Below are positions 5,949-48,086 of a stretch of 48,086 nt of DNA, piece by piece (positions within the stretch are counted from its first letter, which is position 1; each line of letters begins with the position of its first letter). A model generated the notes under the pieces. That model did not search any database. It saw nothing but the letters and a program-made list of their open reading frames with translations, and was not told where the DNA came from. Source of the stretch: a virus; the IMG/VR virus record IMGVR_UViG_3300019135_000007; one strand, 5' to 3'. Position numbers and translations under genes: made by a program.

Positions 5949-6842
5949 TTACCCCTCTAGGAAGTTATATAAAGGCACTCTTACATTGACTTGGAATACT
6001 GGTTCTTCTTCCTCCTCATAAGAGTAAACCTCTAAAATATGCTCTTTCTCCATAAGGGCATCTACAGTGTTATGGAAGTATCCTTCAAGGTTAAAAGGCT
6101 TGTCTACTCTTAAGGCAGATTTAAACTTTCTCATAGTGGCTTTAAAGGCTTCTAGGGCACACTCTAAAACATCAGGGCATAGATAATGCTTCTTCTTAAA
6201 CTTCTTCACCATAGCCCATAATTTATGTATCAGTTTAGCATCATCAAAGTAGCAGGAAACTAGGTCAACAAACTCTTTTGGGATGTCCTTGCTGACCATT
6301 TCCTTACCTAAAATGATTTCTTTAGCCTTTTTAACCACTTTACTGTATATATTATTATTATTTTTATTAATATTAGCTTTTTTATCATTTGTTTCAGGTT
6401 GAGAATTTTGGGCTTCAGCCTTACTCTCACAAGGGCTTTGAGGTTCTGCAGGGTACTTCAAAATTCTCTCTGCTGGTACTTCATTTGTGTATCTTTTAAA
6501 GACATATACACTATGACCCTGCCCACCCTTTTTATGAATAGTGTGGATAACCTCAATGATACCTAGCTTCTTGGCTTTTCTTAACATTCTCTCAAAAGTG
6601 CTTCTTGAGATACCATAGCCATTAAATTTCTCATGGATAGCCTTTAACATAGTTGCAATTTTGGCAAATGCAATCCCAAAGTATTTAGCACTATATTGTG
6701 TTAGCTTTTTAAAGGCAATAAGTTCACCTTTAGTAAATTTATCTTTATGGTCTGCCAAGAACCTTCTATTGCTTGCATTAAACTCCTGTAAATTTTCAAA
6801 CTGGCTCAATTTTCTATACTCTTTAGCTTGCCCAGAAAGCAT
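5949..6842 (-). CDS. Putative plasmid-type replication initiator / winged-helix DNA-binding protein (297 aa)
   Basis: The N-terminal half (GISRSTFERMLRKAKKLGIIEV) looks like an HTH or winged helix. It sits next to the par genes behind an elaborate control region. The family call is inference. Confidence 0.45.
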   Translation of the reverse strand: MLSGQAKEYRKLSQFENLQEFNASNRRFLADHKDKFTKGELIAFKKLTQYSAKYFGIAFAKIATMLKAIHEKFNGYGISRSTFERMLRKAKKLGIIEVIHTIHKKGGQGHSVYVFKRYTNEVPAERILKYPAEPQSPCESKAEAQNSQPETNDKKANINKNNNNIYSKVVKKAKEIILGKEMVSKDIPKEFVDLVSCYFDDAKLIHKLWAMVKKFKKKHYLCPDVLECALEAFKATMRKFKSALRVDKPFNLEGYFHNTVDALMEKEHILEVYSYEEEEEPVFQVNVRVPLYNFLEG

Positions 6843-6848
6843 AAAAAT

Positions 6849-6879
6849 AACTCCTTTCTATATTCTACTGAAAGGAGTT
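6849..6879 (-). promoter_or_regulatory. 10-bp stem hairpin that sequesters the rep Shine-Dalgarno
   Basis: AACTCCTTTC (6849-6858) pairs with GAAAGGAGTT (6870-6879). In the mRNA sense the 3' arm is the GAAAGGAG SD, 7 nt before the rep ATG. Confidence 0.5.
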
Positions 6880-7039
6880 CCCTACCACACAACTTAAAAA
6901 AAATGTAAACACACTTGAATAAGCCTATAGAATTGGTTATACTATAGGTAACTTAATATGTTTTGTGGGTCAAGGAACCCCTAAAAATTCCTTGCATGCA
7001 AAATAACTCCTTTTTAGGGTGTCCTGTGTGGTAGGGAAC
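6877..7039. repeat. 15-bp perfect inverted repeat pair, GTTCCCTACCACACA (6877-6891) and TGTGTGGTAGGGAAC (7025-7039), bracketing the rep upstream region
   Basis: Read directly. Each arm sits next to a copy of AAAATAACTCCTTT (6844-6857 and 7001-7014). Confidence 0.8.
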
Positions 7040-7046
7040 CCTAATC

Positions 7047-7080
7047 CAAAACCTAGTGATTGCCAGTCACTAGGTTTTTT
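7047..7080. terminator. Hairpin terminator (CCTAGTGA-N7-TCACTAGG) with U-tracts on both strands
   Basis: Stem arms at 7052-7059 and 7067-7074, flanked by CCAAAA and TTTTTT. Confidence 0.6.
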
Positions 7081-7235
7081 CCTTTAGCCATAATTCTACA
7101 ATATTTTTGGAATGTTTGTCCATATCTTGCATATATCTAATATCTTGTGCTACAATATTGGTATCCCTTTTATATTGTTTTGTTTTTGTGTTCTTTATCA
7201 GGGGGAGTAATCCCCCAAAAATTTTGCCTATAATT

Positions 7236-7264
7236 ATAATAACATCACTGTAGTTTTGTGTCAA
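7236..7264 (-). promoter_or_regulatory. Sigma-A type promoter of a ~170-nt unit between par and rep
   Basis: -35 TTGACA (7259-7264), 17 nt, -10 TATTAT (7236-7241). It is followed by the GGGGGA-TTAC-TCCCCC hairpin and the CA-rich leader. Confidence 0.7.
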
Positions 7265-7273
7265 TTTCATATT

Positions 7274-7303
7274 AAAAAAGAAGGGGATTATTTCTGCCCC
7301 TTC
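7274..7303 (-). terminator. Rho-independent terminator of the par operon
   Basis: Minus sense GAAGGGG-CAGAAATAAT-CCCCTTC followed by TTTTTT. Confidence 0.75.
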
Positions 7304-7370
7304 CTGTAGTTCTCTATTCTTCTTTTTAGTTCTTCTTCATATCTCTCAATGATTGTTTTAATTTTATACC

Positions 7371-7805
7371 TTATTTCTTTTCCCATTCATTCAAAAGTGC
7401 TTCTATAGCTTCATTGATAAACATGGTTTTAAACCCTCTTTTACCTTTTGTAAGTTTATCCAATCTTCTAAGCAGGTCTTTTCTGAACAGGAAAGTGGTT
7501 CTTTGGTGAGTATCTTCTACAGTCTGTCTTTTTGTTTTTTCTTCATACTTATCAAGTATTGTATTCCTTACATGTTGTAATGTAACAGTTTCAGTATTAC
7601 TTGTTTGTGCTACATCTTCCTGATTAGTATTACTTGTTTGTGCTACATCTTCCTGATTAGTATTACTTGTTTGTGCTACATGTTTCTGTTCAGTATTACT
7701 TAAACCTGTTACATCATCATTTTTAGTGTTATGTCCTACTGATACATTTTCCTTGTGAGAAAACTTATTAAATACATTGGAAAGGTTTTTATTTGCTCTT
7801 GCCAT
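7371..7805 (-). CDS. Ribbon-helix-helix centromere-binding protein candidate (ParG/ParR-like partner of ParA)
   Basis: 144 aa, 4 nt downstream of parA. The C-terminus RTTFLFRKDLLRRLDKL...KTMFINEAIEALL fits an RHH fold. The N-terminus carries tandem QTSNTNQEDVA repeats. Confidence 0.6.
   Translation of the reverse strand: MARANKNLSNVFNKFSHKENVSVGHNTKNDDVTGLSNTEQKHVAQTSNTNQEDVAQTSNTNQEDVAQTSNTETVTLQHVRNTILDKYEEKTKRQTVEDTHQRTTFLFRKDLLRRLDKLTKGKRGFKTMFINEAIEALLNEWEKK
7593..7715. repeat. 33-bp tandem repeat inside the RHH gene (two exact copies plus about 1.5 diverged copies)
   Basis: agtattacttgtttgtgctacatcttcctgatt is identical at 7593-7625 and 7626-7658, followed by diverging copies. Confidence 0.9.
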
Positions 7806-7809
7806 AGGA

Positions 7810-8604
7810 TTACACCCTTTCTTTAGTTTCTAATACTTCTTTGATTAACTCATAATAAGCATAAACTATAGGATTTTTAGCATCTGTCCATACTGCAGGT
7901 TTACCTTCATAAGCAGTAGAGTTAGCAAATCTGATTGACTTTGGTATAATGGTTTCATACATGGTAATATCTTGTTCTAAACAATACTTTCTAGCTTGTT
8001 GAAGCATTTCACTATGCAGATGGGTTCTACTATCTACCATCATGCCCACAACTCCTGCCACTTCTAGTTGTGGGTTTAAATTTTTTCTGAAGTCCTCAAT
8101 AGCTTCTAAAACCCTGACTAAACCCTTCACTCCAAACATTTCAGGTACAAATGGAATAATGACCTTATCAGCCACTGCTAAAGCATTTCCAGTAGGTAGT
8201 CCCATGCTTGGGGGAGTATCAATCAGTATGTAGTCATAGTGGTGTCTGATACTCTCAATGCCCTGTTTTAAAAGTTGGAATGGTAGTGGGTATTTATCCT
8301 GATGGGGCAGAACATCAAACTCCAAGAAACTCATATCTTCATTAGCAGGTAATAAGTCTAGGTTTTCATCTACTGAAATGATTACTTCATCTGTCCTTGC
8401 CCCACCCATAAGAACATCATAGATGGTGTTCATAATCTCACTGGGGTTCAATCCAAAGGCAATAGAACTGTTTCCCTGACCATCAGTATCAATGATAAGC
8501 ACCTTCTTGTTATATTCCCTAGAAAGAACTCCTGCAAGGTTGGAAACAAGGCTTGTCTTACCTACACCACCTTTATTCATAGCAATAGCATATGTAACAG
8601 TCAT
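7810..8604 (-). CDS. parA: ParA/Soj-type partition ATPase (small type Ib)
   Basis: 264 aa; deviant Walker A NKGGVGKTS and Walker B-like region ILIDTPPS. Confidence 0.9.
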   Translation of the reverse strand: MTVTYAIAMNKGGVGKTSLVSNLAGVLSREYNKKVLIIDTDGQGNSSIAFGLNPSEIMNTIYDVLMGGARTDEVIISVDENLDLLPANEDMSFLEFDVLPHQDKYPLPFQLLKQGIESIRHHYDYILIDTPPSMGLPTGNALAVADKVIIPFVPEMFGVKGLVRVLEAIEDFRKNLNPQLEVAGVVGMMVDSRTHLHSEMLQQARKYCLEQDITMYETIIPKSIRFANSTAYEGKPAVWTDAKNPIVYAYYELIKEVLETKERV

Positions 8605-8640
8605 ATGAACACCCTTTCATATTTAGTAATATTTATTAAT

Positions 8641-8670
8641 ATTATATATTATGTAATAATAAAATGTAAA
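8641..8670 (-). promoter_or_regulatory. Probable par operon promoter in a TAATAT-rich region (possible autoregulatory operator)
   Basis: -35 TTTACA (8665-8670), 18 nt, -10 TATAAT (8641-8646). Confidence 0.5.
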
Positions 8671-9316: not shown

Positions 9317-10117
9317 TTAAGACACCTTCCTTTTTAAATTGTTATTTGCTCTGCCCCAAACTTGTTTGGATACTATTGGTTCAAAGTTAAGATTGATAAG
9401 TTCACCATTGTAGATATATCTGCCACAGTAAAGTTCATTCTTCAGGATTTTATTTACACTGTTATGTGTCCATTCCTCACCTTTACTGTTTCTGTATCCT
9501 TCCTGATTGAGCCTGTCAGCAACCTTTCTGATGGATAGACCATCAAAGGCTACCCAGTGGAATATTTTCTTTACCACCTTGGCTTCTTCAGGGATGATTT
9601 CTAGTTGGTTTTCTTCAGTCACCTTGTATCCATAAGGTTTTCTGCTAATGTAGTGACCTTCCCTTAATTTAGCCATCTTTGCAGGCTGTACCCTATTCTT
9701 GATGTTGTCCCTTTCTTGTTCTGCAAATATCCCTAGGAGTTGAAAGGCTAGTTTTCCCACTGGTGTATCTGTATCCAAATCCAAATCACCAATATAGATG
9801 GATGCTCCTAGCTGATTGATTTCATGCTTGGTATTAAGGGCAATCCTTAAATCCCTTGAAAATCTGTCTGCCTTGTAAACATAAACAGTGTCTACTGGGT
9901 TTTCCTTTATAAACTCCATCATTCTCTTGAGTTCAGTTCTATCTTCCTTTGCCCCACTCTCACCTTTTTCAATGAAGTGTTCAATAATTTCATAACCTTT
10001 GTAGACTGCCCATCTATGAGCCTGATTTACTTGGTCATCTAAAGAAATTCCCTTCACTTGGTCTTGAGTGGATACCCTTGCATAGACAACTGCTCTTTTT
10101 AACTCTTGTTCTAGCAT
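9317..10117 (-). CDS. Serine recombinase (resolvase catalytic domain plus partial 'recombinase' domain, 266 aa)
   Basis: VVYARVSTQDQ nucleophile motif and YVYKADRFSRD. The KPYGYKV...IRKVADRLNQEGY segment is typical of large serine recombinases, but there is no zinc-ribbon or coiled-coil domain. Confidence 0.9.
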   Translation of the reverse strand: MLEQELKRAVVYARVSTQDQVKGISLDDQVNQAHRWAVYKGYEIIEHFIEKGESGAKEDRTELKRMMEFIKENPVDTVYVYKADRFSRDLRIALNTKHEINQLGASIYIGDLDLDTDTPVGKLAFQLLGIFAEQERDNIKNRVQPAKMAKLREGHYISRKPYGYKVTEENQLEIIPEEAKVVKKIFHWVAFDGLSIRKVADRLNQEGYRNSKGEEWTHNSVNKILKNELYCGRYIYNGELINLNFEPIVSKQVWGRANNNLKRKVS

Positions 10118-10149
10118 TGTTATCCCCCTCTATATTGTTTTGCTACTTT

Positions 10150-10178
10150 TATAATAATATTATTATAGTCTAATGTCA
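10150..10178 (-). promoter_or_regulatory. Sigma-A type promoter for the recombinase operon
   Basis: -35 TTGACA (10173-10178), 17 nt, -10 TATTAT (10150-10155), then the AGCAAAACAATATAGAGGGGGA leader. Confidence 0.7.
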
Positions 10179-10185
10179 ACAAAAA

Positions 10186-10226
10186 AATTAAAAAAGAAAG
10201 GGCTAGGGATTATTGTTCCCTGCCCT
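10186..10226 (-). terminator. Imperfect hairpin plus T-run after the lysis cassette
   Basis: Minus sense AGGGCAGGGA-ACAATAA-TCCCTAGCCCT followed by TTCTTTTTT. Confidence 0.5.
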
Positions 10227-10572
10227 ATTGTTTTGCCTTTTCTTCTCTGATAATTTTTTCTACCTGCATTTTAAAATCTACTGCAGTGTAAGGGAGATTG
10301 TGCTTCTTCATTTGAGCATCAAATACCTCCATAGCCCTTTGTAGCTTTAAAGCACCATGCTCCTTAAGTTTGTCCCCAAACTCCCTTTCCACATATTCAT
10401 AGACATCCCTGCTGACCTTTTCTAGCATCATATATTGCTCATTAGTGGTCTTTGCCTTAATGTATGCCTTAACTTTAGCTACTGCCATGCCCATTAAAGA
10501 CATAACAGTGAGGGTAATGATTTCAACAAGGTTATCTATAATGACCTTAATGATTTCTTCCATTTCTGTCAC
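10225..10572 (-). CDS. Holin-like protein (LL-H-type architecture: one N-terminal TM segment plus a charged tail)
   Basis: 115 aa; hydrophobic segment LVEIITLTVMSLMGMAVA; sits next to the endolysin. Confidence 0.5.
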   Translation of the reverse strand: MTEMEEIIKVIIDNLVEIITLTVMSLMGMAVAKVKAYIKAKTTNEQYMMLEKVSRDVYEYVEREFGDKLKEHGALKLQRAMEVFDAQMKKHNLPYTAVDFKMQVEKIIREEKAKQ

Positions 10573-10596: not shown

Positions 10597-11436
10597 TTAC
10601 TTTACCCTGATTTTCTGCCCTATCTGTAGTGCAGTGGCTTTGATGTTAGGGTTTAGTGCTTCTAGCTTTGCTACAGTAGTTTTGAATCTTTCAGCTATAG
10701 ACCAAAGGGTATCCCCTTTTTGAATCACATAGTATTTCTGTGGCTTCAGGTAAACTTTATCACCTATCTGTAGAGCCTTTGCCTTCAAATGAGGGTTTAA
10801 TTCCTCAAGTTGGGTTACAGAAATATTGTATTTTTGTGAAATGCCCCAAAGTGTATCTCCTTTTTGGATAATATGATAGTCCTTGGATGGGGCAGGTTTA
10901 GGCTCCACCTTTTTAGGTGGATTTAGCTTTTCCTGAACCGTTTTCTTAAATCTTTCAAATTCTTTAGGGTTCTTCACCCACCCTGCAGGGCAATTTTTCC
11001 CTGTAATGTCAAAATGCCTGTAAAGATTTTTAGCACTCAAGCCAAATAGCTTGCATAGCTGAACTACAATATCCACTGTATTTTGGAATGTTTTTTCAGT
11101 GATATTCATGTTAGCATCTACACACATTTCTACCCCAATGGTTGTGAAGTTGGCATTATCACCAAGTTCCTTAGGGTAGCACCTGCCCCCATCATTTGCA
11201 TGATAGGCTACTTCATCAAAAGGAATAAGCTGAATGGCTTCCTTTTCATCCACTGCAATATGTGCAGAAGCATACCTTTCCTGTCTAATACAAGTCCCAT
11301 CAAAGTAGTCTCTAATATTTTTAGCAGAAGCCCTAGGAGATGCAGTATAATGAAGAACAATTCCCTTTACTCCCTTTAGCTTCCTAGCAGGTCTAGTGTA
11401 TTTATTTACCCTGATAAAGTCCTTTTTAATTATCAT
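10597..11436 (-). CDS. Endolysin: N-acetylmuramoyl-L-alanine amidase (Amidase_2/PGRP) with two C-terminal LysM domains
   Basis: IVLHYTASP and RHFDITGKNCPAGW motifs. Two LysM repeats (YHIIQKGDTLWGISQKYNISV..., YYVIQKGDTLWSIAERFKTTV...). Confidence 0.9.
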   Translation of the reverse strand: MIIKKDFIRVNKYTRPARKLKGVKGIVLHYTASPRASAKNIRDYFDGTCIRQERYASAHIAVDEKEAIQLIPFDEVAYHANDGGRCYPKELGDNANFTTIGVEMCVDANMNITEKTFQNTVDIVVQLCKLFGLSAKNLYRHFDITGKNCPAGWVKNPKEFERFKKTVQEKLNPPKKVEPKPAPSKDYHIIQKGDTLWGISQKYNISVTQLEELNPHLKAKALQIGDKVYLKPQKYYVIQKGDTLWSIAERFKTTVAKLEALNPNIKATALQIGQKIRVK

Positions 11437-32328: not shown

Positions 32329-32388
32329 CAATTTAGACCATCCTTTCATATTGCTTTGTTTTTGTGTCCCTCTCATTGGGACAATTTC

Positions 32389-32417
32389 ATAATAGCATCA
32401 TTACATACCAATGTCAA
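32389..32417 (-). promoter_or_regulatory. Early sigma-A promoter
   Basis: -35 TTGACA (32412-32417), 17 nt, -10 TATTAT (32389-32394), followed by the CA-rich leader. Confidence 0.7.
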
Positions 32418-32504
32418 CATAATATTAAAATTGAATTTAAAAAATTTCTGACCTGCCCCACTTCTGAAATAAGGGCATGGGGTTCCAGTCCAAGGGTAGC
32501 CCCC

Positions 32505-32519
32505 TTGTATCTGATACAA
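32505..32519. promoter_or_regulatory. Perfect 7-1-7 palindrome TTGTATC-T-GATACAA in ORF-free DNA
   Basis: Read directly. Confidence 0.4.
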
Positions 32520-33246
32520 AAAATAAAATTACTAGAACCTGAAATGAAATGGAAGGTTGCATCCTGCAGGGAAAGGGTACACCCTTTCTTGTGAACTTAA
32601 GTGAACAAACAGAAAGGGGAATCATCTTTATGTTTTGTAATGCTTTAGTTGGTTAAAGTGTATAGGTTTTTGGATAAAATTAGTAGATAGAGTTGACTGC
32701 CCAACCCAGTTTGTACCCCCTCCAATTTTTGGAAGGCATACCCCCTATAATCCCCCACAATCTACCATATATGACATTATTTGTCAGTTTATACATTCAA
32801 TGAATTGTAATTTTATTCCAAGTTATTTTCCTTTATTGTTTCCTATCTTTTAAGAATAGAAACATTATTTTCTTTCCAGTGCTAGAAACTACTACATTTC
32901 CTAGCTTTTACAAATATTTTACAATTGGAGATAATGGACATATGGAAGAAACTTACATGAGGATATTTTGCCTAGTTGTGGAAGCTCTTTCCAGTAGAGC
33001 ATGTTGGAGTATCCCAACCACCATTTTCCAGTCAATTTATCCCAAAATACTCCCACATATTCCCTTGTATATTTTCCTATATTTTTATACATTTTGTTCC
33101 AATTTATTTCCATTTTTTTAACAAAAAATGTCATAAATTATTTCTATTTTCTTCCAGAAAGGTCACAGGTGACTGGTGTTATTTTCCTGTATTTTTCTTC
33201 CAGTAGATGGGGCAGTTTTCCAGTCATGAATAACAAAAAAAGGAAG

Positions 33247-34280: not shown

Positions 34281-34320
34281 AGAGGATTTAAGAGGTTTTA
34301 AGAGGATTTAAGAGGTTTTT
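34281..34320. repeat. Four tandem 10-bp repeats AGAGG(A/T)TTTA within an early 5' leader
   Basis: Plus strand reads agaggattta agaggtttta agaggattta agaggttttt. Minus sense gives 4 copies of CCTCTTAAA(A/T) about 15-55 nt downstream of promoter 34340..34368. Confidence 0.85.
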
Positions 34321-35044: not shown

Positions 35045-35308
35045 TTATAATAATTCACATCTTCCAAAATCATACAATTTATATCTGTAGCCATCCAGTT
35101 TAAAATATGGACTGCCTTTTTTAGACACTGGAAAATATATCTTTCTTTTAAACCATATCATCACATCCCCAAACTGGTGGAAACCTAATACATAATCATC
35201 ACAAGCATGTAATATGATGATATGGCTATAAATTGATAAGTTATAAATGTAACCTGCCTTAATTTCCCCATTATCATACTTTTTCATAACTTCCTTTTTT
35301 GTCACCAT
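35045..35308 (-). CDS. Hypothetical early protein (87 aa)
   Basis: ORF track; GAAAGGGGAAAGGA SD. Confidence 0.55.
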   Translation of the reverse strand: MVTKKEVMKKYDNGEIKAGYIYNLSIYSHIIILHACDDYVLGFHQFGDVMIWFKRKIYFPVSKKGSPYFKLDGYRYKLYDFGRCELL

Positions 35309-35350
35309 ATCCTTTCCCCTTTCATATTGTTTTGTTATTAGCTTACTTTA

Positions 35351-35379
35351 ATAATAACATGGCTACATTATAATGTCAA
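35351..35379 (-). promoter_or_regulatory. Early sigma-A promoter
   Basis: -35 TTGACA (35374-35379), 17 nt, -10 TATTAT (35351-35356). Confidence 0.7.
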
Positions 35380-35418
35380 ACATTTATTATAATGTAGTTT
35401 TTACCAATTCCCCCAATA

Positions 35419-35478
35419 GAGGATATTAAGGGAATTAATGAGGATTAAAGAGGATTAAAGAGGATTTTAGAAGATTTT
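35419..35478. repeat. Six tandem ~10-bp repeats (consensus AGAGGATTAA) between two tandem early promoters
   Basis: Plus strand reads gaggatatta agggaattaa tgaggattaa agaggattaa agaggatttt agaagatttt. Confidence 0.85.
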
Positions 35479-35492
35479 CAATGGCTAATATT

Positions 35493-35521
35493 ATAGTAGC
35501 ATGGCATCATTGTAATGTCAA
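35493..35521 (-). promoter_or_regulatory. Early sigma-A promoter (upstream member of a tandem pair)
   Basis: -35 TTGACA (35516-35521), 17 nt, -10 TACTAT (35493-35498). Confidence 0.7.
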
Positions 35522-35782
35522 TCATCTTTTATAAAAATGTTTCAACTTTTTTCTTCCTTATTATATATAAGAAGGAACTGGACAAATAAAAAAAATGCAA
35601 TTGTTTTTTGATTTTCTGCTTGACTTTTCTTTATAATTATAGTAAGGAAACCAATTGTCCTTTTTGTAAATTATTGTAAAATAGTAATTGTCTATTTCTA
35701 CCATGTAAGGAAATTCCTTTACAGAAAATGTAATGGTAGAAAATGGCATACATTTTACATAAATTCCCTTTTTAAATTATGG

Positions 35783-35811
35783 TTGACATATTACATGTTT
35801 TGTGGTATAAT
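35783..35811 (+). promoter_or_regulatory. Perfect consensus sigma-A promoter on the plus strand, firing rightward into ORF-free repeat DNA
   Basis: -35 TTGACA (35783-35788), 17-nt spacer ending in TG, -10 TATAAT (35806-35811). Confidence 0.75.
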
Positions 35812-35958
35812 CCCCAGTCTCCCTATCTGCCAAGTTTACAAATGTTCCCAAAATTGGGAATGGGCTTGGTCAGGGGAAAGGCAGGGGGGAAGTTGTTCTG
35901 AAAATTTTTTTTGAAAATCCATCCACAATTTCATTTTATATATGGTAGGTCAGCCACA

Positions 35959-36342
35959 TTTTTGCCCTACTTTTTTCTATTTCTTTTTTCTCTCACTTTT
36001 TAGCCACTTTTTATGAGAAATTCTTCAGCATTTTTCCCACATTTTTCTGTAGATTTTCTCCCATTTTTCCTGCATTTTTTACTGGAATTTCCCTAGATTT
36101 TTCTAGCATTTTAAAAGTTATTTTCCTTCAGTTTTTTCCTAGATTTTTATTAGAAATTCTGTCAGGCTTTCTCCTAGTTTTTCTACCTAAAATTCCCCTA
36201 CATTTTAGTTAATTTTTCAGGGATTTTTCTGTAGTTTTTTCTAGGAATTTTCCCTAAAATTTTGGGAGATTTTCAGCAGAATTTTGGGGGAATTTCTCTG
36301 AATTTTCCCCTGAAATTTTCTAGGATTTTTCCTGAAATTTTT
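35959..36342. repeat. Array of 34 phased T-tracts (units like CATTTTTCC, GATTTTTCT, AATTTTCCC)
   Basis: T-run starts: 35959, 35971, 35984, 35997, 36008, 36021, 36031, 36042, 36054, 36064, 36075, 36088, 36098, 36109, 36121, 36132, 36144, 36157, 36168, 36178, 36193, 36203, 36213, 36224, 36235, 36248, 36260, 36270, 36282, 36293, 36303, 36316, 36326, 36338. Spacing is 10-15 bp, mean about 11.5 bp. No ORF of 60 aa or more in any frame. Confidence 0.9.
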
Positions 36343-36401
36343 CTTAAAAAAATGGGGCAGAAAGTTAGTGTCATCTTTGATTTTTTGTCAGCTTCAGCAG
36401 A

Positions 36402-36452
36402 AGGGTGGGCTTTAGGGTAGGCTCTAGGGTGGCACTTTGGGTAGGCAGTTCT
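36402..36452. repeat. Four tandem G-rich 12-14-bp repeats (AGGGTGGGCTTT, AGGGTAGGCTCT, AGGGTGGCACTTT, GGGTAGGCAGTTCT)
   Basis: Read directly; includes five GGG runs on the plus strand. Confidence 0.75.
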
Positions 36453-36459
36453 GACTGAA

Positions 36460-36663
36460 CTATGGGATATACTTTACTTGAACTGTTTGCTTCCCTGTTC
36501 CAGTCATAAATTCTGCTTCTATCTCAAAAGGCTTGCCTTCTTCCACCATCTTCTTTATCTTCTGTTTAGTTTCTATGTCTGTCATGTTCCAAATGGAGTG
36601 CTTAAACCATCTATTCCTATCTGCTCCCCTTAACCTGCCCCATCCTGAAATGATTAGTTCCAT
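36460..36663 (-). CDS. Hypothetical protein (67 aa)
   Basis: ORF track. Confidence 0.45.
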   Translation of the reverse strand: MELIISGWGRLRGADRNRWFKHSIWNMTDIETKQKIKKMVEEGKPFEIEAEFMTGTGKQTVQVKYIP

Positions 36664-36864
36664 ACTATCATCCTTACACTTCTATTGTTCTACCCAAACT
36701 GTACCATTATTGCAGTCTAGTGTCAACAAACCATTATAATTTCATTGAAATGAAAACCTTGTAAGTAATATTGTTTATCAATCATTTGAAATTTCATTGT
36801 TATGTAATAGTATTAAGTAAACATAATATGTAACAATAAAACAAAATAAGGAGCCTTAAGCCCC

Positions 36865-37509
36865 TTAATTAATAGGTTTACCTTTTCTTTTGTAGTCTGT
36901 TCTCAACTTATACATAAAACCAATAAGTGTTTTGTCATCATATAATTCAAAGTCCCCCACCATCTTTCCTTCACCCTTCTTGAAGGGAAGAAAAACATGT
37001 GTGCTAAAGTCTCTACCGTTCCCTCTTTTCTCCTTGTGCTTCAGGTTCTGCCTACTCCAAGGAGTATCTACAAACAGATGAACATAATGCTCTCTCATAT
37101 TGTCTAAATCCTGAATAGTTACATCAATCCCCTTTTGCCAATCATCATCATGGTCATACAAGACTTTAAATCCATGTGGCTCATAAAGTTCTTTCATCCT
37201 GATAATGGCATGTTCTTCTCTTACCAGTGACTTATAAGCCCTCTTTGCTCTTGCTTCCAAGCCTAATCTATACCTATCATAATCAGTCATTAGCCTTTCC
37301 ATTGGGAATAGTGGGATAGTTTTTTGAAGGAACTTTTCTACAAATTCTTTTTCAGTGGGTACTAAATGAGGGTATCTCTCTCTTAATTCACTGTAAGCAG
37401 AAATACCTTTATAAACCCCTTTGCCATATTCTACTGGATTGAAAGAGTAGTTTAGATAGAATGTTGGAATGAGTTTAAGCTGATTTTCAAAGTCCTTTGA
37501 AGATAACAT
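36865..37509 (-). CDS. Hypothetical protein (214 aa)
   Basis: ORF 36865..37707 runs through a promoter and leader. The realistic start is MLSSKDFENQ (ATG at 37509) after GTAAAGGGTGG. No family recognised. Confidence 0.55.
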   Translation of the reverse strand: MLSSKDFENQLKLIPTFYLNYSFNPVEYGKGVYKGISAYSELRERYPHLVPTEKEFVEKFLQKTIPLFPMERLMTDYDRYRLGLEARAKRAYKSLVREEHAIIRMKELYEPHGFKVLYDHDDDWQKGIDVTIQDLDNMREHYVHLFVDTPWSRQNLKHKEKRGNGRDFSTHVFLPFKKGEGKMVGDFELYDDKTLIGFMYKLRTDYKRKGKPIN

Positions 37510-45887: not shown

Positions 45888-48086
45888 TTATAAACTGCAT
45901 GATTGACTTCCACACCCCTTGCATTGTGGGCATCCTTCTACCAAGACAAATTCCTTGTGACCACAATTTCCACATGTCCAGTTTTCATACTTGCCCTTTT
46001 TCTGTGGGGCAGACTGCACTTCAGGTTGCTCTTTTTCCACTTCCTCATTGTTCTCTAGGGACAAAATTTGCTCACTTCTTGAGCCATCCCTATAGATAGT
46101 GCCCCCCTTACATCCTGACTTGTAGAGATTTATATAAACTGCTTCACACTGCTCTACAGTGTAATCTGCAGGAGCATTAACTGTTTTGCTGATGGAAGAA
46201 TCAATATATTTCTGTGCTACTGCCTGAACTGCCACATGTTCTTCAGGGGATAAGTCCATAGCACCCACAAACCATTCAGGCAACTTGTCTAAATGAGGGT
46301 TTCTATCCATGAAGGCTTTAGCTACACCTGCATACTGGATTGTACTTCCTATCCTAGACAATCTGTGATACTTCATAGCAAAGTGTGGCTCAATACCTGT
46401 ACTTACAGAACCATGAATATCTAACATAGAAGGTGTCATACTTCCTGTGGTTCCTGTAGGAGCAAAAGTATTAAGAGTAAGGTTCCTGATACCATACTTT
46501 TCAATATCCTCTTTGATTTCTTTAGGGAGCCTTTGAACAAAGCCTGATTGCAGATACTTTTCTTTATCAAAGAATGGGAAGCATCCCTTTTCTTTAGCTA
46601 GTTCAATGGACATTTTATAGCTTTCATCCCTTAAGAATTTCATTAGTTGCTCAAAGACTTTAAGACCTTCAGGAGAACCATATTTTACTCTTAAGGCAAT
46701 AAATAGGTCAGCTACACCCATTCCACCTAGACCTACCCTTCTTTCACCCTTCTGCCAATCTTCCATAGCCTTATCAAAGTAGAAGGTCAAGTCAATGGCA
46801 TTGTCTAGGAATCTTACACCTGTTCTAATGGTCTTTCTTAATAAGTCCCAGTCAATTTCATAAATATCACCCAGTTCATCTTCCCCTACTTTCTTAATCA
46901 TCCTACCAAAGTTGACTGCAGAAAGATTGCAAGTAGAGTTGCCCAAAATTGGTTGTTCTCCACATGGGTTAGTAGCCATTACTAGCCCTAAATACCATCC
47001 ATTGTGATTTCTATTGACTGTATCAATAAAAATGACCCCCGGTTCTGCTGAACTCCAATTGGACTTCATTATCTTGTTCCACATATCTTTAGCCCTGATT
47101 TTTTTATAAACAATAACAGGTAATCCTGCCTTTTCCCATTTCTCAATATCTGCATCCCAAAGTTCATCATAAAGAGGGTGTGTAGTGTCAGGGAACTTCA
47201 ATTCCCATTCTAAATCCTTCTCTACTGCTTCCATGAACTTGTTAGAGATTAGGATTGAACTGTTATTGCCTTCCATGAAGCCTTGCTTATTTTTAGCCCC
47301 AATAAAGTCCTCAATGTAGTTAGGGTCATTTTCATCATTGGTATAGAACACATCAGGATGCCAATCATGGATAGTGAGCATTTGTGCCCCTCTCCTATTG
47401 CCTTGATTGACAAAATCAGTGAGTTGGCTAAACTGGTTCCCAATATAAACTGCCCCTGCAGATTGTCCTTTTGTCTTGCTTAATGGGGAATATCTTGGTC
47501 TGAACACTGAAAGGTTAGTTCCTACTCCCCCACCCCTAGCCATGATTTCAGAAATTCTACCCATATGGTGGAAGATAGCCTGTCTACTATCCCTTCCCTT
47601 TTCAGGAGCATATGGGGCAGGTTCAACATTAATGACATAGCAGTTAAAAAGTGTAACCTCTGAATCATCCCCTGCACCTGTCAAAATCCTTCCTGAAGGC
47701 ACTAAATAGAAGTTCTCTAATGCTTCCTTAAACTCTTTATAAGCCTTCTCTCTAGCTTCAGGTGTTTGCTCTACAGAAGCTAAAGCCTTTGCCACCCTGT
47801 CTGCAGTTTCTGCATACCTTACTTCAAGAAGGGCATCTATAAGGTTAATGTCCTGCACAAACTCCTGCCCTACCTGATACTCCACACCATCAGCAGTTTG
47901 CAGTTCCATAATTACCTTGTCACCCTGAATATCCTTTACAGTAGCAATTTCCCTGACTGGATACTTACCATCTTTCACTAGGGTTACTACTGTTGCACCC
48001 TTCTTGATGAATTTTTTCTTATCCAGTGTTTTCTTTGCATATCTTGTAAGATGAATTTTTCTGTGAAAGCCCTGTAATTCTACTCC
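45888..48086 (-). CDS. nrdJ: Class II (adenosylcobalamin-dependent) ribonucleotide reductase; the start codon lies across the junction at 128-130
   Basis: The active-site loop ATNPCGEQPIL and C-terminal Cys-rich tail CGNCGH...CPQCKGCGSQSC are typical of NrdJ. The frame stays open to the window edge. Confidence 0.88.
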   Translation of the reverse strand, partial: GVELQGFHRKIHLTRYAKKTLDKKKFIKKGATVVTLVKDGKYPVREIATVKDIQGDKVIMELQTADGVEYQVGQEFVQDINLIDALLEVRYAETADRVAKALASVEQTPEAREKAYKEFKEALENFYLVPSGRILTGAGDDSEVTLFNCYVINVEPAPYAPEKGRDSRQAIFHHMGRISEIMARGGGVGTNLSVFRPRYSPLSKTKGQSAGAVYIGNQFSQLTDFVNQGNRRGAQMLTIHDWHPDVFYTNDENDPNYIEDFIGAKNKQGFMEGNNSSILISNKFMEAVEKDLEWELKFPDTTHPLYDELWDADIEKWEKAGLPVIVYKKIRAKDMWNKIMKSNWSSAEPGVIFIDTVNRNHNGWYLGLVMATNPCGEQPILGNSTCNLSAVNFGRMIKKVGEDELGDIYEIDWDLLRKTIRTGVRFLDNAIDLTFYFDKAMEDWQKGERRVGLGGMGVADLFIALRVKYGSPEGLKVFEQLMKFLRDESYKMSIELAKEKGCFPFFDKEKYLQSGFVQRLPKEIKEDIEKYGIRNLTLNTFAPTGTTGSMTPSMLDIHGSVSTGIEPHFAMKYHRLSRIGSTIQYAGVAKAFMDRNPHLDKLPEWFVGAMDLSPEEHVAVQAVAQKYIDSSISKTVNAPADYTVEQCEAVYINLYKSGCKGGTIYRDGSRSEQILSLENNEEVEKEQPEVQSAPQKKGKYENWTCGNCGHKEFVLVEGCPQCKGCGSQSCSL
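47960..48086. repeat. Right copy of the 127-bp direct repeat
   Basis: Identical to 1..127. Confidence 0.95.

Follow-up and report, generated by a model that had tools for sequence, protein, structure and literature searches.

What is a long array of phased T-tracts doing in front of the strongest promoter of a phage genome? We analysed this question in the 48,086-nucleotide virus record IMGVR_UViG_3300019135_000007 (the window), where a consensus plus-strand promoter at position 35,783 points into an array that contains no open reading frame (ORF). An earlier, sequence-only reading of this DNA had taken the promoter and the array as a unit. By comparison with relatives, the array is one half of a two-part noncoding DNA module conserved in a family of phage-plasmids, a cluster of iterons being the other half. 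We tentatively suggest that the module is a lytic replication origin.

A phased array beside conserved iterons

The array occupies positions 35959-36342 (384 bp). Fourier analysis and unit counts resolve it into 34 head-to-tail units on an 11.4-bp lattice, with the T-runs on the plus strand. It is gene-free, and its plus strand is 50% T, 18% C and 11% G (70% A+T overall). T-runs of T3 or longer number 32; the count of 34 units is reached by adding three degenerate AATTC units and dropping one T3 that lies within a unit. The sequence-only reading had described 34 runs of T3-6 at spacings of 10-15 bp with a mean of about 11.5 bp. The array and its phasing stand, with the runs corrected to 32 and the spacings to 10-13 bp (mean 11.48, standard deviation 0.87, lattice period 11.40). 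Fourier power of TTT at 11.4 bp was 10.7, compared with a maximum of 4.9 in 1000 Markov shuffles, so the spacing is phased far beyond shuffles, as the periodicity check proposed with that reading required. Across the window the background has a median of 0.15 and a 99th percentile of 0.98, and the array is by far the strongest periodic signal. Long-range phase-locking of the unit spacing beyond a random walk was not significant (P about 0.1). The unit core reads A-T(4-5)-C on the plus strand, where C directly follows the T-run in 23 of 32 units, and AGAAAAAT on the gene (minus) strand. Individual units have diverged from one another by 30-35%.

Curvature prediction, also proposed earlier as a check, gave its highest value in the window at the array. 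With a wedge model the array reached 9.7 degrees per turn against 3.93 ± 0.71 for the window, about 8 standard deviations above the mean. Because the 11.4-bp period exceeds the helical repeat by about 1 bp, the array is predicted to be strongly curved DNA that follows a right-handed superhelical path and not a planar curve. The sign convention for handedness was verified on synthetic 9-12-bp repeats. Relative to shuffles, the two array strands show a similar excess of folding (z = -3.7 and -4.2), a sign of dyad symmetry in the DNA and not of a strand-specific RNA.

The first 127 bases of the window recur identically at 47960-48086, and the window is therefore a circular assembly of 47,959 bp. 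Nearly all of its genes are on the minus strand. It encodes a terminase and structural proteins, DnaB helicase, a split DnaE, ribonucleotide reductase, a sigma-70-like factor, ArdA, an L5 gp82-like protein, ParA, XRE regulators, and a Rep-like helix-turn-helix (HTH) protein. Its closest cultured relative is Rossellomorea phage phiT1 (62% identity in TerL and 44% in the sigma factor). Homologues of the sigma factor were found on contigs of 47-53 kb, including the circular Halobacillus litoralis plasmid CP129017 and a contig of Priestia endophytica. On this evidence the window is a member of an uncharacterised Bacillaceae phage-plasmid family. Identical copies of the window are also present in JGI and ENA metagenome assemblies.

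Twelve relatives were read (L001, L006, L007, L009, L011, L013, L014, L015, L016, L053, L174, and L176). A blastn search of window positions 35300-37000 against phage records gave no match. Scans of IMG/VR with protein patterns, from a 280-amino acid (aa) ORF and from the sigma factor alignment, found no relatives, and a metagenome scan with an alignment of the conserved 214-aa protein encoded beside the sigma factor found nothing. A search of the literature on this phage family found nothing relevant.

About 55 bp beyond the array are four iterons at 12-bp spacing (36402-36446; GCCYACCCT on the minus strand, AGGGTRGGC on the plus strand), a cluster that the sequence-only reading had overlooked. 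Between array and iterons the plus strand carries the flank AAAAAAATGGGGCAGAAAG (36346-36364), which recurs at the Halobacillus plasmid's inverted array as AAAAATGGGGCAGAAGG. A gene-free gap of 1.1-2 kb is found at the same syntenic place in 11 of the 12 relatives. L015 was excluded from this count as its contig does not reach the gap and breaks off about 0.1 kb into the preceding gene, and the L014 contig ends inside its gap. The position of the gap is constant: it follows the sigma factor gene, a conserved gene for a 214-220-aa protein and a variable gene, and it precedes ArdA/gp82. In all 11 relatives that reach it, the gap opens with the same GCCYACCCT cluster in the same orientation. Strict copies of the 9-mer number 3-8 per relative, with more under a relaxed motif, and in L174 about a dozen iteron-like copies are present. 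In Jayan, a more distant Bacillus phage, nothing similar to this gap follows the sigma factor gene. Searched as a pattern, an iteron pair gave 34 chance matches in GTDB genomes, from unrelated high-GC taxa, and none in IMG/VR.

In the relatives examined for arrays by reading, runs of window-type units directly follow the iterons. Three relatives have long arrays (L006, 271 bp; L174, 291 bp; L176, 261 bp). The period in all three, as in the window, peaks at exactly 11.4 bp, and in none of the four did any of 300 shuffles reach the peak. The shorter arrays of L009 and L011 peak at 11.3-11.4 bp (9 and 5 of 300 shuffles reaching them, respectively). That of L014, with a peak at 11.6 bp, was indistinguishable from shuffles (24 of 300). 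Across the four long arrays, G comes before the A-run in 59-81% of cases and T after it in 59-75%, a shared core of A-G-A(3-6)-T. The sigma factors of the long-array genomes are only about 42-51% identical to that of the window. In L006 the array and the common flank (AAAAATGGGGCAGAA) run in the opposite sense to the iterons and the genes. Strand sense is thus not essential, and this tolerance of inversion favours a role at the level of DNA. As a 15-mer, AAAAATGGGGCAGAA has many chance matches in IMG/VR, none with iterons or a phased array. In six of eight relatives, the highest predicted curvature along about 14 kb is reached no more than about 350 bp downstream of the iterons; in a seventh, L016, this spot ranks second.

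Some contigs stop inside or at the edge of arrays (L014, at 9617; L004; L005). Short-read assembly probably breaks at these repeats, and array lengths in draft assemblies may therefore be underestimated.

Promoters and terminators around the module

The sequence-only reading named the promoter that faces the array as the best of the window and saw no ORF with a Shine-Dalgarno sequence downstream of it, and both observations were borne out. In a whole-window scan, the sigma-A-type site at 35783-35811 (TTGACA-17-TATAAT with an extended -10 TG) is the only promoter to match 12 of 12 consensus positions and the only plus-strand site to match at least 11. A weaker promoter-like plus-strand site (TTGATT-18-TATAAT, 10/12) is found at 35608-35637. 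Plus-strand ORFs downstream of the 35783 promoter are of 30-52 aa only, with TTG starts, and no Shine-Dalgarno sequence was seen before them when the sequence was read by eye. The predicted untranslated 5' part of the transcript (35817-35958) has a hairpin (35817-35882) and a T8 run (35905-35912). As no canonical intrinsic terminator follows these before the array, read-through into the array is plausible in this window. Rfam searches at gathering thresholds (the window and eight loci) and at E ≤ 1 (35300-36900) returned only tRNAs and chance matches at the level of microRNAs. Of the features of a small RNA gene, the locus thus has the promoter, while it lacks a canonical terminator before the array, a distinctive fold (z = -1.5 for the 5' part) and an Rfam match.

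A gene-direction promoter at 36698-36726 on the minus strand (TTGACA-17-TACAGT with TG, from the promoter scan) precedes a 67-aa minus-strand ORF (36460-36663, from the ORF list). This ORF lies immediately upstream of the iterons in the gene direction. No terminator separates it from the iterons and the array, so the promoter at 36726 converges with that at 35783.

The pairing of promoter and array was not found in the other three long-array genomes, as no strong promoter reads into the array of L006, L174, or L176. In L006 the terminator of the upstream gene lies on one side of the block of iterons and array, and a strong terminator on the anti-strand lies on the other. The L176 array directly adjoins an anti-strand terminator, and the L174 block lies between two gene-direction terminators, with no promoter of at least 10/12 reading in. 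Since these genomes have no strong promoter reading in, coupling of promoter and array is, judged from promoter and terminator predictions, specific to this window. With terminators at the block and the L006 array inverted, the earlier picture of a promoter firing into the array as one unit does not hold for the family. The terminators at the block edges fit DNA that is shielded from transcription. For genome scanning, the lesson is that a promoter and an array that look like one device in a single genome may be neighbours by accident; what is conserved here is the array with the iterons.

Four relatives have a conserved promoter on the strand opposite to the genes (TATAGACTTTTGA...TATAAT), which is diverged (ATAGACA...) in L009 and L013. 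It is predicted to drive a two-hairpin RNA of about 105 nucleotides with a CCUCAAU-type apical loop and, in most, an intrinsic terminator. The putative small RNA gene lies between the iterons and a second array (L007 9700-9860, L016 9743-9900, L009 9708-9855, L013 9941-10090, L001 9652-9800). Its promoter motif was not found in the window, and the RNA has no Rfam match. RNAalifold returned 0 pairs on a MAFFT alignment that was too poor.

For this one genome, a transcription element is a possible but unlikely explanation of the array. Its U-rich RNA (UUUUUC every 11.4 nucleotides) might load Rho, pause or terminate polymerase, or act by antisense or interference against the transcript from 36726 and the 67-aa gene. 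Rho sites are rich in C and poor in G, and C residues at regular intervals have been reported in them. The predicted RNA fits in composition (50% U, 18% C, 11% G), and C comes right after 23 of its 32 U-runs. It would start from the best promoter of the window, one without the palindrome of the neighbouring early promoters (ACATTATAATGT, described below) and with no canonical terminator before the array, and it would meet the converging transcript from 36726. However, the RNA folds better than shuffles, both array strands fold similarly, and there is no Rfam family. Nor is the arrangement conserved: L006, L174, and L176 have no strong promoter into the T-sense, their blocks have edge terminators, and in L006 the array is inverted. 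The earlier alternatives of an RNA sponge or Rho-loading decoy and of an antisense RNA are therefore not conserved and could apply at most to this genome.

A candidate lytic replication origin

In the window, a cassette at 5949-8604 encodes ParA (confirmed by Pfam), a protein of 144 aa, and the Rep-like protein (297 aa; phrog_1835). Its place is taken in phiT1 and the Halobacillus plasmid (L017 10326-13031; L018 18500-21035) by genes for ParM/StbA, a small, unrelated ParR-like protein, and an HTH protein. The window Rep-like protein has no BLASTP similarity to its counterparts in phiT1 or the Halobacillus plasmid. The 144-aa protein has no Pfam or PHROG match; of the "ParA plus ribbon-helix-helix (RHH) partner" described earlier, ParA is confirmed and the RHH assignment is unverified. 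The iterons are unchanged in both of these elements, and the Halobacillus plasmid also has the core of the array. Identities in the conserved core are 51% for DnaB, 50-55% for a 221-aa protein and 57-66% for the 214-aa protein. Because ParA gives way to ParM and Rep differs while the iterons and array, DnaB and the core replication genes stay, the module travels with the phage core. On this comparison it belongs to the conserved phage core and not to an exchangeable plasmid-maintenance cassette. The exchange of the cassette with iterons and core kept is the main argument against the ParA/RHH centromere that was the lead idea of the sequence-only reading, and also against binding of the iterons by the plasmid Rep, a role that a conserved core protein could fill.

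Our favoured reading, for which we would claim somewhat less than an even chance, is a DNA-level protein-assembly module made of iterons and a curved, right-handed superhelical repeat track, most likely a lytic replication origin. It rests on anatomy, conservation, and analogy with lambda ori and the site arrays of oriC. A conserved phage or host protein would bind the iterons with high affinity and would then spread or wrap cooperatively along the repeat track. The A-tract bends, about 1 bp out of step with the helix, would already set the DNA into a right-handed superhelix with one turn in roughly 130 bp. Such an origin would be distinct from the plasmid Rep/Par module, and nearby strong promoters (that at 35783 here, that of the small anti-strand RNA gene in relatives) may activate or insulate it. 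An origin activated by transcription had been among the earlier alternatives. Because a conserved iteron cluster adjoins the array, an origin-like element is the best fit among them, while the link to the promoter is specific to the window. If the module is a lytic origin, it would define the replication start of an uncharacterised phage-plasmid family of about 50 kb in spore-forming Bacillaceae (Halobacillus, Priestia, Rossellomorea). It would also be an unusually clean natural example of a sequence-encoded DNA shape that serves to build a nucleoprotein machine: 14-34 A-tracts kept at a period of 11.4 bp, which differs from the helical repeat by about 1 bp, in both orientations and in four or more diverged genomes.

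Iterons and bent DNA with phased A-tracts beside a strong promoter or small RNA are the layout of lambda ori (pR, oop). Similar to lambda ori, P1 oriR, pSC101, and R6K gamma, the module has short direct repeats in the same orientation next to A+T-rich DNA with phased A/T-tracts. Its noncoding or insulated setting and the adjoining strong promoter or small RNA gene are further likenesses to origins of the lambda type. The window's four iterons would also suit an iteron-type origin, for which at least three same-orientation direct repeats are expected. In E. coli oriC, same-oriented sites 11 bp apart guide DnaA oligomers. There, high-affinity anchors are followed by a head-to-tail track of low-affinity DnaA sites at about 11 bp with a right-handed path, and the array here might likewise guide a protein oligomer, although its motif is different and its track far longer.

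Several observations weigh against an origin. No initiator gene was identified and none lies beside the module, whereas lambda-type origins adjoin the gene of their cognate initiator, and no cognate Rep gene co-varies with the iterons. Unlike in those origins, DnaA boxes do not cluster in the gap. CodY boxes do not cluster there either. GC3 skew along the co-oriented genes is flat, with no origin or terminus signal. The module has 14-34 units at 11.4 bp where lambda-type origins have 3-4 at about 10.5 bp, and to our knowledge no unwinding element or bent arm of an origin comes near 34 units. Helical stability is not at its minimum in the array either: by nearest-neighbour calculation the array is at the 95th percentile of instability at 384 bp, and spots of lower stability are found elsewhere. 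Finally, the window module is uninsulated, as it lies between the convergent promoters at 36726 (minus) and 35783 (plus).

A candidate partner of the module, which we offer as a lead rather than as evidence, is the 214-aa protein encoded beside the sigma factor (36865-37509, minus strand). It is better conserved (57-66%) than the sigma factor itself and is restricted to this phage family. Its AlphaFold model is confident (pLDDT 87), and Foldseek gives weak matches of the PD-(D/E)XK nuclease type (best E = 0.08).

Other readings and neighbouring repeats

No more probable than a transcription element, and unlikely in our view, is an architectural or regulatory DNA for the early anti-defence operon. 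Such DNA, upstream of the cluster of strong sigma-A promoters, might nucleate an activator or, in the plasmid-prophage state, a silencing filament, or it might pin supercoils. The module does head an early region (ArdA, L5 gp82-like, DUF3846) with six strong promoters in the same orientation. Early promoters of Bacillus phages are known to be stimulated by curved poly-A DNA upstream of them. The SP82 elements Alu156 and Bal129 likewise have phased A-tracts in a Bacillus phage early region, but with 3-5 tracts immediately upstream of the -35, whereas here 34 tracts lie hundreds of bp from a co-oriented promoter. Intrinsic curvature is reported to position plectonemes (PMC6301789). The closest gene-direction promoter (35521), however, is over 400 bp away from the array, and in relatives other arrays and the small RNA gene intervene. 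The palindrome of the early promoters, which is repeated in relatives, already looks like an operator.

More speculative and rather doubtful is that iterons and AGAAAAAT track form a previously undescribed viral DNA device, a pre-formed right-handed solenoid of up to about three turns on which a conserved phage or host protein polymerises. It might fire a new type of lytic origin, or it might be a physical brake or boundary that keeps the first-entering 7% of the genome (the anti-defence genes) apart from the rest, as T5 achieves by other means.

A direct repeat of 318 bp is found at the termini of the phiT1 record, and the independent contig L016 ends about 6.6 kb downstream of its sigma factor gene, nearly as phiT1 does. 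Both ends are in a second noncoding repeat region, equivalent to about 32.4-32.9 kb of the window, which is the probable site of the genome ends. This region (about 32377-32919 in the window; the L001 end, the L016 end, and L013 13050-14000) is just upstream of DUF3846/TerS, and in relatives it carries ATATAAGGGG-type repeats. The array itself was rejected as a genome end or terminal repeat, as the phiT1 repeat and the L016 end lie about 2.5 kb further on. From the probable ends the array is about 3-3.6 kb (roughly 7%) away, beside the anti-defence genes.

This position raises the quite improbable reading of a genome-entry or packaging element, like the T5 injection-stop region, that would bound the first few kb (the anti-defence genes) to enter. 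The injection stop signal of T5 is part of a large untranslated region of repeats located at 7.9% of the genome (bioRxiv 10.1101/866236). The left terminal repeat of T5 and the locus here share a kb-scale, gene-free region with multiple repeats, beside early anti-host genes and about 7-8% from an end (bioRxiv 10.1101/866236). T5 has ordered DnaA boxes and large palindromes, whereas the locus here has iterons and a phased A-tract array and no DnaA boxes. Two-step entry is not known in such siphoviruses. The ends, packaging direction, and entry order of this family are inferred, and the probable ends lie in the other noncoding region.

A functionless minisatellite expanded by slippage and rich in A-tracts by chance would account for the variation from about 8 to 34 units among relatives and for the short contigs that break at the array, but we consider it very unlikely. 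Neutral indels would erase the phase of the array. Period and core persist in four genomes, one of them inverted, despite 30-35% divergence among units and with proteins about 50-65% identical, which argues for selection rather than neutral slippage.

Least probable, with hardly any chance, is a partition centromere bound by the 144-aa ParA partner: the window has ParA, and the array has the short repeats of a centromere, its direct repeats of about 11 bp and predicted superhelical path resembling R1 parC (11-bp repeats), pSK41 parC and TubC (12-bp), where a nucleoprotein complex of superhelical or ring-like form is built on direct repeats of about 10-12 bp, but it lies about 28 kb from the par genes and is neither linked to nor co-inherited with the par operon, as ParM/StbA takes the place of ParA in phiT1 and the Halobacillus plasmid with the same iterons and, in the latter, the same array core.

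The par genes have nearby short repeats of their own, whereas the earlier reading had seen no obvious centromere array beside them. A 33-bp tandem repeat (x3.3; 7593-7701) is inside the gene of the 144-aa ParA partner. A 10-bp repeat (x2.5; 8619-8643) is in the very A+T-rich region upstream of parA, which holds the least stable 60 bp of the window. By sequence, these two are the more conventional centromere candidates. Inside the Rep-like gene (positions 6521-6550), GCCCACCCT occurs once, at a distance of 12 bp from a perfect DnaA box, TTATCCACA (minus strand, 6542).

In the early region, the minus-strand promoter at 35351-35379 carries the 12-bp palindrome ACATTATAATGT in two copies (35363-35374 and 35386-35397), and a diverged copy is found in a duplicate early promoter at 35486-35534. 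The corresponding early promoters of relatives (L001 at about 10910-10945; L007; L016) read TTGCATTATAATGTCAT. The palindrome is probably a repressor operator. Tandem 10-bp repeats are found at 35418-35466 and 34281-34319, at the 5' ends of predicted minus-strand transcripts (promoters 35521 and 34368). They read UUAAUCCUCU on the minus strand (x4-5), resembling an anti-Shine-Dalgarno sequence, and differ in relatives (AATTGGAAAA). An (A)GGATTT core of the phased array had earlier been matched to these leader repeats; GGATT is common to both and nothing beyond it.

Other arrays occupy the gaps of relatives. A second repeat type, AAAATTCCAAATC, is present in 8-15 copies in five of them (L001 9850-9980, L007 9880-10050, L013 10160-10350, L016 9920-10090, L176 7175-7275). 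Those tested (L007, L013, L176) are not A-tract-phased and fall outside the top-curvature windows. Of this type the window keeps no more than a possible remnant, near 35896-35931. L009 has about 20 copies of a repeat of about 19 bp containing GTAAGT (10040-10440). Lineage-specific arrays are also found in the gaps of L011, with GGAAATGG, and of L006, with three copies of a 20-bp repeat.

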